Shown here piece after piece: positions 4,613-30,332 of a stretch of DNA of 64,000 nucleotides. This stretch comes from an uncultured Clostridia bacterium. GTDB taxonomy: Bacteria; Bacillota; Clostridia; Christensenellales; UBA1242. The translations under genes and the position numbers were made by a program. The notes beneath the pieces are model-generated. The model saw nothing but the letters and a program-made list of their open reading frames with translations, was not told the DNA's origin and made no database searches. The first letter of the stretch is position 1. Each line of letters starts with the position of its first letter. The DNA lies in the NCBI GenBank assembly GCA_934772045.1, contig CAKVMH010000002.1, positions 219,062 through 283,061 of the forward strand, given 5' to 3'.

Positions 4613-5680
4613 ATGTCAAACAACTATTATTTAGATAGAAATCGTAAATACATGCAAAAATTAAATGAAATGTTGTGTGATTTGCCGAGTTTTTGCAGTA
4701 TATTTTTCATTGGTATACAGGACACCACCACCCCGCTCACTCGTTTTAATTATGCGGTTGATTTAAAAACATTCTTTAATTACCTTGTAACATATGAAAC
4801 TCATTTTTTTAATAAACCTATTACAAGCATTACTTTAAGTGATATTGATGAAATTGATGCTCAACTTATTGAGCGTTTTATGGCATATTTGTCCTATTAT
4901 GACAAGGAAAACGGCGAGATTTTAACAAATGGTGAACGCGGAAAGTTAAGGAAACTGTCTACCCTTCGCGCGTTCTTTAAATACTTTTTTAATAAGGATA
5001 TGTTAAGAGCAAATGTTGCAAGCAAGGTAAAATCGCCAAAATTACACGATAAACCTATCATTCGCTTGGAACAACAAGAAACTGAAGAATTGATGTATTC
5101 CTGCGATAGCCTTGCAGGTTTTAGCATGCACCAACGCAAATACAATGAAAAGTTTAAAATACGCGACAACGCCATTTTGTCTTTATTTTTAACGACAGGT
5201 ATCCGTGTTAGCGAATGTGTTGGTTTAAATGTTGATGATATTAACTTTAACCTTAACTCATTCAGGGTTACACGCAAAGGTGGTAACCAAGTTATTTTAT
5301 ATTTTGGCGAAGACACGGCAGAAGCATTAAAATCTTACCTAGCCTACCGCGACACATTGCATATTCCAAAAGAAGAACGCGCTTTGTTTATTTCCAGCCA
5401 AGGCAAACGCATGATGGTTAGGAATATGGAATATTTGGTAAAAAAATATGCCAAAGTTGCCACCCCACTAAAAAATATTACACCACATAAATTGCGCTCT
5501 ACATATGGCACGAACCTGTATAATGAAACAAAGGACATTTATATTGTTGCAGAAGTTTTAGGTCATAAAGATGTAAACACAACTAAAAAACACTATGCTG
5601 CAATCAGTGACGATATACGTCGTTCAGTTGCTGGCAAGGTAAAATTAAAAAGTGAAAGTTCCCCTACTCACGGTAACTAA
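4613..5680 (+). CDS. Tyrosine site-specific recombinase, Xer family (355 aa, XerS-like length)
   Basis: C-terminal catalytic region has R (TGIRVSE), HKLRSTY, LGHKDVNTTKKHY (catalytic Tyr). N-terminal SAM-like core-binding domain. SD-like aaaagg lies 5 nt upstream of the ATG. Confidence 0.85.
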   Translation: MSNNYYLDRNRKYMQKLNEMLCDLPSFCSIFFIGIQDTTTPLTRFNYAVDLKTFFNYLVTYETHFFNKPITSITLSDIDEIDAQLIERFMAYLSYYDKENGEILTNGERGKLRKLSTLRAFFKYFFNKDMLRANVASKVKSPKLHDKPIIRLEQQETEELMYSCDSLAGFSMHQRKYNEKFKIRDNAILSLFLTTGIRVSECVGLNVDDINFNLNSFRVTRKGGNQVILYFGEDTAEALKSYLAYRDTLHIPKEERALFISSQGKRMMVRNMEYLVKKYAKVATPLKNITPHKLRSTYGTNLYNETKDIYIVAEVLGHKDVNTTKKHYAAISDDIRRSVAGKVKLKSESSPTHGN

Positions 5681-5760
5681 CTGTCACGATTTTATGAATT
5701 ATAAATATGTAAATTATTGTATAATCTATAATTTACGGTTGAAATTGTTTATTTCTTTCA

Positions 5761-5856
5761 CAATTTAGAAGCAAAATTACTCATTTTATTCGCAATTTAA
5801 AAGGAAAATTACTCATTTTATTCGTAATTTAAAAGGAAAATTACTCATTTTATTCG
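5761..5856. repeat. Three tandem copies of a 32-bp repeat (plus a partial fourth) between the recombinase gene and the lexA promoter
   Basis: Units caatttaRaagSaaaattactcattttattcg at 5761-5792, 5793-5824 and 5825-5856. The fourth copy breaks off exactly at the SOS box. Confidence 0.9.
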
Positions 5857-5864
5857 TAATTTAT

Positions 5865-5878
5865 CGAACAAATGTTTG
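5865..5878 (+). promoter_or_regulatory. LexA (Cheo/SOS) box overlapping the lexA promoter
   Basis: CGAACAAATGTTTG compared with the Firmicute consensus CGAAC-N4-GTTCG. It overlaps the -35 TTGACA at 5876-5881. Confidence 0.7.
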
Positions 5879-5904
5879 ACAAATAGATTTTTTTGTGTTA
5901 AATT
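5876..5904 (+). promoter_or_regulatory. Sigma-A type promoter of lexA
   Basis: TTGACA (5876-5881), a 16-17 nt spacer, then TTAAAT/TAAATT (5898-5904), about 70 nt upstream of the lexA ATG. Confidence 0.55.
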
Positions 5905-23815: not shown

Positions 23816-23890
23816 TGGAGCTAGTGAATGGAGTCGAACCATCAACCTGCTGATTACAAGTCAGCTGCTCTGCCATTGAGCCACACTAGC
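23816..23890 (-). tRNA. tRNA-Thr (anticodon TGT)
   Basis: Reverse complement GCTAGTGTGGCTCAATGGCAGAGCAGCTGACTTGTAATCAGCAGGTTGATGGTTCGACTCCATTCACTAGCTCCA. Anticodon loop CT-TGT-AA. Confidence 0.9.
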
Positions 23891-27056: not shown

Positions 27057-28391
27057 TTAAACAAAGTTTTTAAAGAATTTTTCACGCAATAACAAAAGTT
27101 TTGCATCGTTAATGCGGTAACTATTGTCAACACTCATGCTGAAAATTTTGTTGAAATGCCCTATTGCTTTTTCGTCTTCAATAATCATAACGTCTTGCAA
27201 TGTTTGATTAATAAGCCCACGATTAAGTGTAAAAGAGCCATACATAGCATATTTTGAATCAATAACCATTGCATTAAAGCGAATGAACCCGTCATAAAGA
27301 TAACAATTTGCACCGCTTAAAGCAAGTTCTTTAACATACGCACGTGAAGCAAAATACCTACTGCTGTTTTCAGATTTTAAAGGTACCATTAACCTTACAT
27401 CGATGTTTGAATTTAATGCAAATTTCAGCAATGACATTATGCTTTCAGTCGGTATAAATTCTTCAACCTGAATTTGAATTGATTCTTTTGCCATACAAAT
27501 TGCTTTTATAAGCATCAATTCTAAGTCTTGATTAACAGCATTAGGTATGTATTGCATTGTAGCGTCTGCTTTCACTTCAAATTTCGGTGCAGTATATTCC
27601 ATGTATTTACCGCTTGCAAAAATGACATCTTTGTGCGCTGAAATATCGACTGCTTGGACAACATCGCCCTTAAATTTAAGCAACACATTTGCAACTGTAC
27701 ATTTATTTTTAAGTTGGCACTTTTTTGCGTCAATTTTGCCAAGATAAGCGGTTGTGCCATCAATAATTATGCGGTTGCGTTTATTGATTAATGTACGGTC
27801 GAAAGTGCGTAATTTGCTAAACTTATAAACTTTTGCACCTGCTTTAATTAATCCCTTTTTTGCCATGCGTGAAACATGCTTGTCATAAATAATTTTAACA
27901 ATAACCCCAGCTTCTAACTTTTTTAACAATGGCTGTTCAAGCCATTCAAAATCGTTAACATCTAATTTGGTAACTTCAAAAATTATATATTTTTTTGCGG
28001 TGTTGATTTCACGCAATAAATTTTCCTTAAATTTGATGTGCGAATGGAAGAATTCAACACTATTGTTGCCATACACTTGTGCATTGTACCCTAATTTATT
28101 AAAACTGAAATAATCATCTGTCAAATTTTCATCTGTCTTTAATAACTGCTTACTTACAAGGTTTTCAAAAACTTGGTCTTCTTTAACTTTAACGGACAAT
28201 GAATTGCGTTTTTTGTAATAAATGATTTTAGAGCATAAGTATATCACCCCACCAATAAGTGAAGTAAAAATAAAAAGCGTTAGCCACAAAATAATGGCGC
28301 GTGGTTTGTCGCGTTCAAAAATTATCATAATCGAGGACATTACAATCAGCAGAATTGCCAAAAGTAATATTAATAAAATTTTACCTAACAT
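27057..28391 (-). CDS. Membrane-anchored phospholipase D / cardiolipin-synthase-like protein; both HKD motifs appear degenerate
   Basis: Two N-terminal TM helices, then two PLD-like repeats. At the expected H-x-K positions it reads NKRNRIIIDG and IRFNAMVIDS. Confidence 0.6.
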   Translation of the reverse strand: MLGKILLILLLAILLIVMSSIMIIFERDKPRAIILWLTLFIFTSLIGGVIYLCSKIIYYKKRNSLSVKVKEDQVFENLVSKQLLKTDENLTDDYFSFNKLGYNAQVYGNNSVEFFHSHIKFKENLLREINTAKKYIIFEVTKLDVNDFEWLEQPLLKKLEAGVIVKIIYDKHVSRMAKKGLIKAGAKVYKFSKLRTFDRTLINKRNRIIIDGTTAYLGKIDAKKCQLKNKCTVANVLLKFKGDVVQAVDISAHKDVIFASGKYMEYTAPKFEVKADATMQYIPNAVNQDLELMLIKAICMAKESIQIQVEEFIPTESIMSLLKFALNSNIDVRLMVPLKSENSSRYFASRAYVKELALSGANCYLYDGFIRFNAMVIDSKYAMYGSFTLNRGLINQTLQDVMIIEDEKAIGHFNKIFSMSVDNSYRINDAKLLLLREKFFKNFV

Positions 28392-28485
28392 ATTTTTATT
28401 TTAACAAAAGTGCAATTTTAGTGCAACTAAAAATGTTAAAATTAAATTATTGCAGTTAAATTTTACAAAAATAAGCATAAAAATA

Positions 28486-28514
28486 TTGTAATTATTAAAA
28501 TTTTTTGCTAATAT
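28486..28514 (+). promoter_or_regulatory. Sigma-A promoter of the tRNA-Thr(CGU) array
   Basis: TTGTAA (28486-28491), 17-nt spacer, TAATAT (28509-28514), about 19 nt upstream of the tRNA 5' end. Confidence 0.55.
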
Positions 28515-28532
28515 ATTTACGATTACGCTTAT

Positions 28533-28608
28533 GCTGATGTAGCACAGTCGGTAGTGCAATTGATTCGTAATCAATAGGTCGCCGGTTCAAGTCCGGCCAT
28601 CAGCTCCA
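28533..28608 (+). tRNA. tRNA-Thr (anticodon CGT), canonical, CCA encoded
   Basis: GCTGATGTAGCACAGTCGGTAGTGCAATTGATTCGTAATCAATAGGTCGCCGGTTCAAGTCCGGCCATCAGCTCCA is a perfect 76-nt cloverleaf. Confidence 0.9.
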
Positions 28609-28667
28609 TTTTTTTTATTATCAGGGACGTGCTTGCACTACCGACGCTAAACTAAATTTTAATAAAT

Positions 28668-28890
28668 GCTGATGTAGCACAGTTGGCGAGTAGCGTTAAA
28701 CAATATGCCACAATTGGCATGTTGTAGCGGTGCCGTCAGGCAACGAGTGAGCGTTAGCGATGGAAGTGCAATTGATTCGTAATCTTAGTTTAAGAAAACT
28801 TCATTTCGTGCTCACAGATATATTTCTTTATCTGTTCGCTCTCAATTCGTTTACAATAGGTCGCCGGTTCAAGTCCGGCCATCAGCTCCA
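28668..28890 (+). ncRNA. 223-nt tRNA-Thr(CGU) derivative interrupted in the D-loop (82 nt replace 5 nt) and in the 3' anticodon stem (70-nt insertion); copy A
   Basis: 28668-28683 equals tRNA nt 1-16, 28766-28784 equals nt 22-40, and 28855-28890 equals nt 41-76. All three segments are identical to the canonical gene. Function unknown; it could be a pseudogene. Confidence 0.6.
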
Positions 28891-28949
28891 TTTTTTTTAT
28901 TATCAGGGACGTGCTTGCACTACCGACGCTAAACTAAATTTTAATAAAT

Positions 28950-29172
28950 GCTGATGTAGCACAGTTGGCGAGTAGCGTTAAACAATATGCCACAATTGGC
29001 ATGTTGTAGCGGTGCCGTCAGGCAACGAGTGAGCGTTAGCGATGGAAGTGCAATTGATTCGTAATCTTAGTTTAAGAAAACTTCATTTCGTGCTCACAGA
29101 TATATTTCTTTATCTGTTCGCTCTCAATTCGTTTACAATAGGTCGCCGGTTCAAGTCCGGCCATCAGCTCCA
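28950..29172 (+). ncRNA. Second, identical 223-nt interrupted tRNA-Thr(CGU) derivative; copy B
   Basis: The 282-bp unit (59-nt spacer plus 223 nt) at 28891-29172 looks identical to 28609-28890 when the two are read side by side. Confidence 0.6.
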
Positions 29173-29174
29173 AG

Positions 29175-29198
29175 TCCTAGAATGTCTAGGATTTTTTT
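29175..29198 (+). terminator. Rho-independent terminator closing the tRNA-Thr array
   Basis: tcctaga-atg-tctagga followed by T7. Confidence 0.85.
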
Positions 29199-29255
29199 AC
29201 AAAAAATGGCTACAAAACTAGAATTTGTAACCATTAAGTCAATAAGATTTGAATT

Positions 29256-30332
29256 TTATTTGTATACCACAGTAATGATTTTACAAATTTCAGGATGAGA
29301 AACACAAGTCAACTTCAGTTTCACGCTACCCTTATTTTTAAATATTAAATTAATCAAAGGCGGATTATTTGCAGTAATTTCTGCAATATTTTTTTCATCA
29401 TCAACAATCTCAACTTTTATGTATTGGTCGACATACTCATCATCGCCATATGTAATTTGGTAATTCACACTATAAGATTTTCTTGTGATTGTTAAAGTGT
29501 CATTTTCTAAATTCGGCAAAACAATTTTATATTCTTTTGATGGCACAATTATTGAACTGTCGTCTTTTGTTTCGTCATTTTCATTATTATTTTCTTCATC
29601 TTTACAATCATCGGTCTTGTAGCCTTCATAATTGTTTTCATCAATTTTGTTGTCGTCGTCATTGTGTTCTTCTTTTTCATCAACTTTGTTGTCGGCGTCA
29701 TTTTGTTCTTTTTTCTCATCAGTTTTGTTGCCATCATCACTGTTTTCTTCGTTTTTATCGGTTTTATTATCGTTGTCACTTATATCGTCCGTATTGTCGT
29801 CTATGTTGCTATCGCCAGTGTTATCACCTGTTGTTTTGTCGTCGTCTAGTTTGACGTCGTTGTCATTATTGTAATTATCATCTTTATCGTTGTTATCTGT
29901 GTCGTCGTTTGAATTTATATCCTCATCTTTCTTTTCTGTGCTTGAATTATCATTTCTGCCATCATCTTTTGTGGTGCCTCTGTCTTCATTGTTTTCCGTC
30001 TTGTTTGTACCTTTATTATCGTCATCTGCCGAAATAGTGCTGTCATTATTACCTTTGTTAGAACTAGAATTTTCTTGATTATCAGTCTTAGTTTCGCTGT
30101 CACCAGAACTAGAATTATTATCACTACTATTAGAAGATGTATCATTATCGCCATTTGGTTTGTCGCTCGGTTTGATATTGGTGTAATTGCCATTCTTATT
30201 TTTGTTGTCAGTTTGTGAATTTTCATACCCAAAGTTATTGTTCGCTTCAATATTTCTTTTGACAATTAAAAAAATTGCTAGCGTTAATACTAGCGCGATA
30301 CATAAAATTGGATAAAAAATTGCTTTACGCAC
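29256..30332 (-). CDS. Membrane-anchored, extremely acidic D/N/K/E-rich protein with a small beta-rich C-terminal domain
   Basis: N-terminal TM (ILCIALVLTLAIFLIV), about 230 aa of low complexity with internal 13-aa repeats, then an ordered C-terminal ~100 aa. Confidence 0.6.
   Translation of the reverse strand: MRKAIFYPILCIALVLTLAIFLIVKRNIEANNNFGYENSQTDNKNKNGNYTNIKPSDKPNGDNDTSSNSSDNNSSSGDSETKTDNQENSSSNKGNNDSTISADDDNKGTNKTENNEDRGTTKDDGRNDNSSTEKKDEDINSNDDTDNNDKDDNYNNDNDVKLDDDKTTGDNTGDSNIDDNTDDISDNDNKTDKNEENSDDGNKTDEKKEQNDADNKVDEKEEHNDDDNKIDENNYEGYKTDDCKDEENNNENDETKDDSSIIVPSKEYKIVLPNLENDTLTITRKSYSVNYQITYGDDEYVDQYIKVEIVDDEKNIAEITANNPPLINLIFKNKGSVKLKLTCVSHPEICKIITVVYK
29635..29790. repeat. Four imperfect 39-bp tandem repeats inside the acidic protein gene
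   Basis: Units begin ttttcatcaaYtttgttgtcg.... They encode the repeat DNK.DE..E.ND. Confidence 0.7.

Follow-up and report, generated by a model that had tools for sequence, protein, structure and literature searches.

A conserved RNA domain and a tRNA-directed antisense element in a tRNA-Thr(CGU) array of uncultured gut Christensenellales

Layout of the tRNA-Thr(CGU) array

This study deals with a tRNA-Thr(CGU) gene and two interrupted copies of it, located in a 64,000 nucleotide (nt) stretch of contig CAKVMH010000002.1 of an uncultured Clostridia bacterium. This whole stretch is referred to as the window, and coordinates are given within it unless a related locus is named. At this locus and its relatives, one tRNA gene is associated with a conserved RNA domain, which is bracketed by parts of that same tRNA and accompanied by a co-varying antisense element directed against the D-arm of the tRNA. 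In the window, the array forms one putative transcription unit, which consists of a promoter, the tRNA-Thr(CGU) gene, two repeat units and a terminator:

28486..28514, plus strand: promoter, read from the sequence, with −35 box TTGTAA (28486-28491), a 17-nt spacer ending in TGC and −10 box TAATAT (28509-28514)
28533..28608, plus strand: canonical tRNA-Thr(CGU), 76 nt, with encoded CCA (ARAGORN; Rfam tRNA, 75 bits)
28609..28667, plus strand: spacer 1 with a T8 run, the antisense element (anti-D) and an AU-rich linker, which is found directly 5′ of the tRNA in relatives
28633..28645, plus strand: anti-D, TTGCACTACCGAC, perfectly antisense (13/13) to tRNA nt 15-27 (28547-28559)
28668..28890, plus strand: interrupted tRNA unit 1, 223 nt, made up of tRNA nt 1-16 (28668-28683), insert 1 (ins1), nt 22-40 (28766-28784), insert 2 (ins2) and nt 41-76 (28855-28890)
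28684..28765, plus strand: ins1 with hairpin P1 (28700-28725), hairpin P2 (28731-28742) and the invariant AACGAGTGAGCG (28742-28753); the D-arm mimic GCGATGGAAGTGC lies at 28757-28769
28785..28854, plus strand: ins2 with a hairpin at 28814-28835
28891..29172, plus strand: unit 2, identical to 28609-28890, with spacer 28891-28949, anti-D 28915-28927 and interrupted tRNA 28950-29172
29175..29198, plus strand: intrinsic terminator with stem TCCTAGA/TCTAGGA, loop ATG and T7 (hairpin 29175-29191, RNAfold −9.3 kcal/mol)

Tandem Repeats Finder reported a repeat at 28572-29172 (period 282, 2.1 copies, 100% matches, score 1202), and a script comparison showed that 28609-28890 and 28891-29172 are identical units of 282 nt. 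Each unit contains, in order, the 59-nt spacer, tRNA nt 1-16, ins1 (82 nt), nt 22-40, ins2 (70 nt) and nt 41-76. The three tRNA segments recur exactly at 28668/28950, 28766/29048 and 28855/29137, respectively. A first-pass annotation, made from the sequence alone, had described a tRNA followed by two identical units between one promoter and one terminator, with tRNA segments retained at 100% identity and hairpins at 28700-28725 and 28814-28835. All of this was borne out and its coordinates are accurate, but it had been overlooked that the 59-nt spacer contains a stretch of 13 nt which is perfectly antisense to tRNA nt 15-27. The interrupted copies keep 71 of the 76 tRNA positions and lack about 5 nt of the D-loop; the pentamer CGGTA is present in the canonical gene only. 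Alternatively, the break in the D-loop can be read as an insertion at position 17 which keeps A14, R15, G18, G19 and A21 (AGU / UGGCGAG...GCGAU / GGAA GUGC). The boundary of ins2 is ambiguous by 1 nt. The GC content is 51% in ins1 and 31% in ins2.

Both ARAGORN and Rfam called 28533-28608 as the sole canonical tRNA-Thr(CGU) and did not detect the interrupted copies. The promoter scores 8/12, which is under the threshold of the consensus scan, and is therefore missing from its output; the terminator is not in the output of the automated scan either. As the first-pass annotation had assumed, the inserts hold no open reading frame (ORF) of credible coding potential: the sole ORF (28760-28954, 64 amino acids) was rejected, as it spans the unit boundary and the equivalent frame in the related locus L011 ends after 10 codons. 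BLAST searches of the window with ins1, ins2 and the spacer revealed no further copies. In the spacer, anti-D is followed by 8 nt (TAAACTAA, 28648-28655) which match the first 8 nt of ins2 (TTAGTTTA, 28785-28792) as a perfect complement, possibly by chance because both are AT-rich.

Leader modules in relatives and the age of the interrupted copies

For comparison, about 45 syntenic loci of uncultured gut Christensenellales were used (loci are given L numbers). The related contigs are from uncultured Clostridia of human and animal guts, labelled Candidatus Onthoplasma or Christensenella. The tRNA of each species was compared with its own flanks and the loci were then read directly. ins1 and ins2 turned out to be independent modules which occur separately and which, in relatives, are mostly 5′ leaders before a complete tRNA. 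Three leader types were found between a conserved promoter (TTGTAA-N17-TAWTAT, preceding the array also in L011, L012, L016, L055 and L058) and an intact tRNA. The ins1-type leader has the order tRNA nt 1-16/19, ins1, D-arm mimic (GAUGGAAGUGC), 2-nt loop, anti-D (GCACUACCGAC), AU-rich linker and tRNA. It is found in L011, L015, L055, L058 and L062, in tandem in L012 and L049, 5′-truncated in L014 (which retains just the 3′ half of ins1 and the hairpin), diverged in L019 and L045, and cut by the contig end in L066. ins1 is always flanked by tRNA-derived pieces, with the copy of nt 1-16/19 located 5′ of it and the mimic 3′ of it. The block GTGCTTGCACTACCGACGCTAAAC..TTTTAATAAAT, which makes up most of the window spacer, separates ins1 from the intact tRNA in L055 and L011. 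The ins2-type leader (L016, L061 and L010) has the order nt 1-40, ins2, nt 41-51, short hairpin, linker and tRNA. A third type was observed on the minus strand of L033 (1120-1222), L036 (5725-5835) and L048 (5768-5880), where an exact copy of tRNA nt 1-38 on the 5′ side and the intact tRNA on the 3′ side enclose a conserved module, about 65-75 nt long, with a second anticodon-loop-like CUCGUAAAC within a hairpin.

Other arrangements exist as well. L022, L025 and L030 (about 5690-5900, minus strand) have AT-rich leaders of 230-330 nt between promoter and tRNA, which are without tRNA-derived pieces and partly similar to each other. L065, found near L019, has a plain tRNA. On the minus strand of L042 (5431-5665), the canonical tRNA has a trailer which begins with a 9-nt antisense of the anticodon loop (TTACGAATC; 8/300 shuffles), which forms a palindrome with an anticodon-loop-like copy, and a fragment of tRNA nt 38-76 lies about 197 nt downstream. 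This arrangement is the anticodon-arm analogue of mimic and anti-D.

Partial tRNA copies are thus present in many relatives, covering nt 1-16, 1-19, 1-38 or 1-40 upstream and nt 25-76 or 38-76 downstream of the gene. Such copies might be att-site repeats left by mobile or integrative elements at tRNA-Thr(CGU), with the modules as remnants of the element arms. The array resembles att-site tRNA duplications in its partial direct copies around inserted DNA and in its breaks in the D-loop and the anticodon loop/stem, which are reportedly the classical cross-over regions of integrases. Degenerate direct repeats around both inserts (weak, and seen by eye) and a gene content beside the tRNA that varies between strains would also fit. 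However, no integrase or transposase was found near the locus in any relative, and the neighbours are housekeeping genes (PLD-family, AP endonuclease, RluA-type, SpoU and other methyltransferases) rather than those of an integrative element. Neither insert has terminal inverted repeats at its boundaries, as the first-pass annotation had noted, no second copy occurs in the window or in 492 kb of related loci, and viral contigs gave no match to the ins1 pattern described below. These findings also speak against miniature inverted-repeat transposable elements or insertion sequences. Unlike att-site duplications, the array has inserts of 65-130 nt, no recombinase, and covariation of the RNA type: compensating helices which contain G·U pairs indicate selection on a sense-strand RNA and not on protein-binding DNA sites. 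An origin as integration scars is very improbable on these grounds.

The window units could be derived from leader-type loci in two ways, by recombination of AGTGC in the mimic with tRNA nt 21-25 through microhomology, and by recombination between the repeated nt 41-51 segments, followed by tandem duplication. Based on the junction sequences, the interrupted copies probably descend by recombination from leader-type ancestors. DNA inversion between anti-D and the tRNA D-arm was also considered as a source of the window layout, but on inspection its predicted product differs from the observed one. A module inside an otherwise complete tRNA copy is found in the window species and in L013 only. 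The interrupted copies are probably not intron-containing genes but recent recombinant fusions of the tRNA-Thr gene with two small structured RNA modules: the resident tRNA gene would have recombined with two lineage-specific modules which are 5′ leaders of the same tRNA in related species.

Judged from the strain comparison, the window layout looks derived and young. The first-pass annotation had allowed for a mis-assembly of the tandem units; the interrupted structure recurs, however, in metagenome contigs assembled independently, some of them at k=141, which rules out a mis-join. One unit is present in L001, L005, L007 and L008 and two in L002, L003 and L004, and the contigs of L006 and L009 end inside the array; the copy number of two is uncertain, because exact 282-bp repeats exceed short-read resolution. 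Many contigs end inside the array (L006, L009, L010, L056, L059, L062 and L066), which fits repeats combined with strain heterogeneity, and the locus is systematically under-assembled in metagenome-assembled genomes. The sister strain L055, whose PLD protein is 98% identical to that of the window, carries ins1 as a leader, and both ins2 and interrupted copies are missing from it. In L003/L004, both interrupted copies have the anticodon CGA (T36A; window-equivalent positions 28780 and 29062), whereas the canonical copy keeps CGT. In L013, a different species, an interrupted copy with ins1 only (5624-5775) also has a CGA anticodon and, in addition, two acceptor-stem mismatches, and the canonical copy again keeps CGT. 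The first-pass annotation had taken the perfect conservation of the tRNA pieces as an argument against neutral decay. This argument fails, as the 100% identity is better explained by recency or gene conversion, the sister strain lacks interrupted copies, and copy number and anticodon vary. The near-identical locus pairs L058/L011 and L062/L015 are distinguished by little more than the tRNA-like stretch of 16-19 nt at the 5′ end of the leader (L058 GCTACTGTGGCTCAGT vs. L011 GCTGATGTAGCACAGT), which points to gene conversion or allele swapping with tRNA sequences.

Two explanations need to be weighed against these data. First, the inserts could be true intervening sequences, either a new small intron or pieces excised by an RNase, which would give a spliced or fragmented but functional tRNA-Thr; both forms had been proposed in the first-pass annotation. 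Apart from about 5 nt of the D-loop, the whole tRNA is kept, acceptor stem, T-arm and CCA are intact, and the break points lie where the stems could hold the pieces together. On the other hand, relatives carry the same modules outside complete tRNAs, the D-loop pentamer is replaced and not merely interrupted, the interrupted copies mutate to CGA while the canonical copy stays CGU, and an intact canonical gene is present in the same operon. Using cmscan, no group I or II intron and no small self-cleaving ribozyme was matched at E≤10 in 28300-29400 and the relatives. The predicted folds contain no archaeal-type bulge-helix-bulge motif, although no dedicated search for it was made. ins1 and ins2 also lack the terminal complementarity of rRNA-type intervening sequences excised by RNase III, and the conserved helices of ins1 are internal. 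Further, the interrupted copies do not behave as functional tRNAs: they escape ARAGORN and Rfam, enforcing all four tRNA stems on the interrupted unit costs +10.6 kcal/mol compared to the minimum free energy (MFE) structure, and neither anticodon nor acceptor stem is conserved. Disrupted tRNA genes of Archaea and red algae (with multiple or ectopic bulge-helix-bulge introns, split, or permuted) have breaks at non-canonical positions including the D-arm and the anticodon arm (PMC3978253, PMC3728597). They differ from the array in their bulge-helix-bulge motifs and splicing endonuclease, whereas the host here is bacterial and the modules lie outside tRNAs in relatives. Intervening sequences are the least supported explanation, and we consider them extremely improbable.

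Second, the array might be a neutral by-product: ins1 would be functional as a leader elsewhere, and the window units would be dead chimeric pseudogenes, tandem-duplicated by unequal crossing-over between tRNA-derived repeats. The polymorphism within the species (one or two units, none in the sister strain), the CGA anticodons in both L003/L004 copies and in L013 with its acceptor-stem mismatches, the identity of the pieces, which fits recency, and the energetic cost of the cloverleaf all agree with this. A related proposal of the first-pass annotation, a pseudogene formed by two insertions and then duplicated, was right in so far as the copies are chimeric and recently duplicated; however, the supposed insertions are pre-existing conserved modules and not random DNA. 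Against decay, the interrupted units hold the sole ins1 copies found in the 64-kb window and the contigs of the same species, and hence supply ins1 if it is needed. Moreover, ins1 retains compensatory changes even within the decayed tRNA frame of L013, and anti-D is intact in each spacer. A purely neutral origin of the window units appears rather unlikely to us.

ins1 as a conserved structured RNA

Homologs of ins1 were found in L011, L012, L013, L014, L015, L019, L045, L049, L055, L058, L062 and L066. Compared to the window, ins1 is 90-94% identical in L011, L012, L013 and L015, while the DNA of the PLD gene is only 69-72% identical; for L019 the respective values are 80% and 61%. In the sister strain L055, ins1 is less identical (90%) than the PLD gene DNA (96%), which points to allele exchange at the locus. 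RNAalifold applied to ten ins1 variants gave the hairpins P1 and P2 and a possible closing helix, in which the tRNA-derived CAGUYG with its D-loop nucleotides would pair with the invariant CGAGUG. In this consensus structure, 96.9% of the cells are paired vs. 24-45% in controls with slid partners. Three pairs show double changes, and the covariation score is reached by 0/500 shuffles; this support is moderate, because the sample is small and related. Nearly all cells which are not Watson-Crick pairs are G·U on the tRNA-sense strand, so that the selected entity is neither a DNA palindrome nor an antisense transcript. Four (G/U)AGCG motifs are located in conserved unpaired blocks of ins1.

The covariance model R1, built from the ins1 alignment, detected ins1 at this locus only in 492 kb of related loci. 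Sequence collections were scanned with the pattern TTGTAGCGGTG-N(4-16)-AACGAGTGA. Six matches were obtained in JGI metagenomes, of which one is genuine (L049) and five are chance matches in high-GC DNA; viral contigs gave 0 matches. Rfam searches at permissive thresholds (E≤10; 28300-29400 and six relatives) returned tRNAs and noise only, and no family for any leader type. No tmRNA, YrlA or other tRNA-like RNA was matched in the ARAGORN tmRNA search and in Rfam. Thus, ins1 has the general marks of a conserved structured non-coding RNA, i.e., slow evolution, compensated helices and strand specificity. For ins2 they are weaker: it has about 71% identity to its homologs in L016, L061 and L010, with one compensatory change from A-U to U-A in the hairpin (by eye). 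We conclude that ins1 is likely a functional RNA. It is an undescribed, strongly conserved RNA domain of the poorly studied gut lineage Christensenellales.

Of the explanations offered in the first-pass annotation, a structured non-coding RNA on a tRNA scaffold comes closest. ins1 is indeed a conserved structured RNA domain, but most relatives carry it as a 5′ leader and not as an insert. The MFE structure of interrupted unit 1 keeps the acceptor stem and the T-arm (z = −5.2). A pairing between ins1 and ins2 in the MFE structure of the window found no support, since L016 and L061 carry ins2 but no ins1, and its register is ambiguous. A C/D-box-like guide was rejected, as the 5′ CUGAUGU is off consensus, a D box is missing and the host is bacterial. 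Other tRNA-framed non-coding RNAs (tmRNA, YrlA/Y RNA, gammaherpesvirus tRNA-miRNA chimeras) are alike in that a tRNA-like acceptor stem and T-arm supply processing and stability. In the array, by contrast, the frame exactly reproduces a functional tRNA next to it, and the appended domain protrudes from the D-loop.

The antisense element and its possible role

At eight loci, anti-D is perfectly antisense over 11-13 nt to nt 15-27 of the locus's own tRNA, which is reached by at most 1/300 shuffles; the 13/13 match in the window is reached by 0/300. L045 combines the D-arm GTTGGTAGAGC with the anti-D GCTCTACCAAC, compared to GTCGGTAGTGC and GCACTACCGAC in the window clade, i.e., anti-D follows a swap of the 12:23 pair and a change of D-loop base 17. 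The mimic arm and anti-D form a hairpin across a 2-nt loop. Their complementarity is imperfect in every species, yet that to the tRNA arm, 40-110 nt away, is perfect, which would argue for selection on the pairing between anti-D and tRNA rather than for quasi-palindrome correction.

Predicted folding is in line with such a pairing. In seven out of seven transcripts comprising leader and tRNA, the MFE structure pairs anti-D with the tRNA D-arm (11/11) and is 7-14 kcal/mol better than any fold in which the cloverleaf is enforced. In four of the seven, namely the loci whose leader 5′ piece equals that of the tRNA, leader nt 1-7 are predicted to pair with the 3′ acceptor strand of the tRNA, and the predicted product is an "expanded tRNA" of about 213 nt with ins1 in the D-loop. 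The MFE structures of ins2-type and third-type leaders also use the leader 5′ copy, by 3-6 kcal/mol. For the window, both tRNA plus spacer and the full transcript are predicted to fold such that the first anti-D invades the D-arm of the canonical tRNA; in the full transcript, the second anti-D is predicted to pair back on the mimic of unit 1. According to these models, anti-D might regulate the folding or maturation of the tRNA, which we put forward tentatively and judge to fall somewhat short of an even chance.

Several observations weigh against this interpretation. The covariation of ins1 rests on only about 10 related sequences, the interrupted unit pays the cloverleaf penalty of 10.6 kcal/mol given above, and L019 and L013 are without an anti-D to nt 15-27. 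The leader 5′ copy mismatches the tRNA in L058, L015 and L045 and is absent from L014, so the alternative acceptor stem is not universal. The tracking of the tRNA by anti-D could in principle result from quasi-palindrome template switching instead of selection. Finally, the cloverleaf is favoured by tertiary structure, modifications and co-transcriptional kinetics, none of which enter the energy model.

It is also conceivable that ins1 is a small RNA which merely travels with the tRNA. It would bind a protein or ligand, the tRNA pieces would be handles for processing and stability, and the mimic:anti-D hairpin would be a protective 3′ stem-loop, without any regulation of the tRNA. The (G/U)AGCG motifs in conserved unpaired blocks and the reduced L014, with just the 3′ half of ins1 and the hairpin, would suit such an RNA. 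In addition, small RNAs which flank tRNAs and are freed by tRNA processing are known, rtT RNA being one and 3′ETS another. The RNA of the E. coli tyrT repeats is reportedly released through processing of the tRNA operon. In organisation, tyrT with its 178-bp repeats and rtT RNA (Rfam RF00391), which is involved in processing of the tyrT transcript, is the closest known system: its tandem units are likewise distal to the tRNA, and each keeps a tRNA 3′ piece with CCA. However, there is no match to RF00391 in sequence or structure, and rtT keeps about 19 nt of the tRNA 3′ end, whereas the array keeps 71/76 positions and has the D-arm antisense. The resemblance is thus one of organisation only, without homology. 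What speaks against a small RNA independent of the tRNA is that anti-D is perfect to the tRNA and not to its hairpin partner, that it follows D-loop base 17 and the 12:23 change in L045, and that ins1 was not found away from this tRNA in the JGI pattern scan or the covariance model search of 492 kb. We rate this explanation as improbable.

The host is a sporulating bacterium of the class Clostridia. In the window, the array is surrounded by housekeeping genes, which encode a PLD-family protein, a TIM barrel of the AP endonuclease type and RluA-type pseudouridine synthases as well as ScpAB, SpoIIAA/AB-SigF and SpoVA. Of 39 related species, nearly all keep tRNA-Thr(CGU) next to the PLD-family gene. 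At 28421-28431, and at the equivalent place in most relatives, the conserved motif (T)ATCGCAACTAAA or GTGCAACTAAA is present about 60-100 nt upstream of the tRNA promoter. It sits between this promoter and the divergent PLD-family gene and may be a shared regulatory site. In L058 (1340-2050) and L061 (275-991), the array is immediately followed, on the same strand, by a gene for a SpoU/TrmH-family 2′-O-methyltransferase, with equivalents in L011, L014 and L016; L055 has an unrelated class-I methyltransferase where these relatives have the SpoU/TrmH gene. A link of the SpoU/TrmH gene to the D-loop as a G18 methylase was set aside, since its matches to RlmB, TrmL and TrmH are sub-threshold and non-specific and the gene is not at the equivalent position of the window. 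A 39-nt tandem repeat (3.7 copies, 76% matches, 29635-29778) lies inside a minus-strand ORF of 358 amino acids (29256-30332), which has no Pfam family and a weak YSIRK-lipase-like NCBIfam match and whose length varies between strains (345, 349, 358 and 379 amino acids).

A UGU isoacceptor tRNA-Thr is encoded at 23816-23890 (ARAGORN). tRNA-Thr(CGU) is dispensable in many Firmicutes, as the UGU isoacceptor is present. The gene would be dispensable here for the same reason, and the locus would therefore be free to evolve a device such as the following. Anti-D and the cloverleaf would compete for the D-arm of the tRNA; in leader-type loci, the leader copy of nt 1-7 would also compete for the 3′ acceptor strand. 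Since the tRNA pieces supply acceptor stem, T-arm and CCA, RNase P and 3′ trimming could excise a stable RNA, namely a 223-nt tRNA-framed species presenting ins1 from D-loop position 17. A given transcript would then end up either as mature tRNA-Thr(CGU) or as an "expanded" tRNA-like RNA, and the locus would either set the supply of a non-essential isoacceptor or yield a tRNA-like RNA with another role. The tandem units of the window would be a hard-wired, recently duplicated variant. On balance, we favour a tRNA-linked structured RNA which competes with or remodels the folding of tRNA-Thr(CGU) and which is hard-wired here into duplicated tRNA frames, and we give this reading an even chance of being correct. 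A more specific form is a natural cis-acting riboregulator, in which a chain of alternative pairings of ins1, mimic and anti-D would choose between tRNA-Thr(CGU) and the ins1-bearing expanded tRNA. The tRNA gene would then have two alternative 5′ halves, steered by a signal sensed by ins1. We consider this form rather doubtful.

The closest analogues of the proposed mechanism are synthetic RNase P riboswitches, in which a structured 5′ leader of a pre-tRNA sets maturation by alternative base pairing (Ender et al.; PMC8925977). They differ in being engineered, in masking the leader beside the cleavage site and in using a theophylline aptamer, whereas the array is natural and its antisense is directed to D-arm nt 15-27. 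No natural counterpart of a riboswitch in a pre-tRNA leader was found in the literature, nor any equivalent of interrupted bacterial tRNAs, of tRNA leaders with antisense segments or of Clostridia tRNA-like RNAs. T-box RNAs are similar as cis leader RNAs which pair with a specific tRNA, and ins1 includes two motifs which recall them: ACGA would read as the Thr codon for anticodon CGU followed by a purine, and UGGA complements the 3′ UCCA. However, the significant predicted pairing in the array is to the D-arm of the co-transcribed tRNA, and no downstream terminator or ORF is controlled. A T-box was rejected, given that RF00230 was not matched at E≤10, ACGA and UGGA are only about 17 nt apart, and there is no regulated downstream ORF.

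In summary, the locus is a tRNA-linked non-coding RNA which combines a conserved domain not described before with an antisense element against the tRNA, and its interrupted copies appear to be a young, polymorphic rearrangement. It is a clear natural case of short-homology exchange of parts between tRNA genes and neighbouring RNAs, and it indicates that "interrupted tRNAs" of bacteria can arise without introns. For annotation, caution is advised, as such chimeras escape tRNA finders and break metagenome assemblies. If anti-D and the alternative 5′ half act as proposed, this would be the first natural RNA leader known to us which controls the folding or maturation of a tRNA, previously achieved by synthetic constructs only (PMC8925977), and tRNA supply would join the riboswitch-like outputs.

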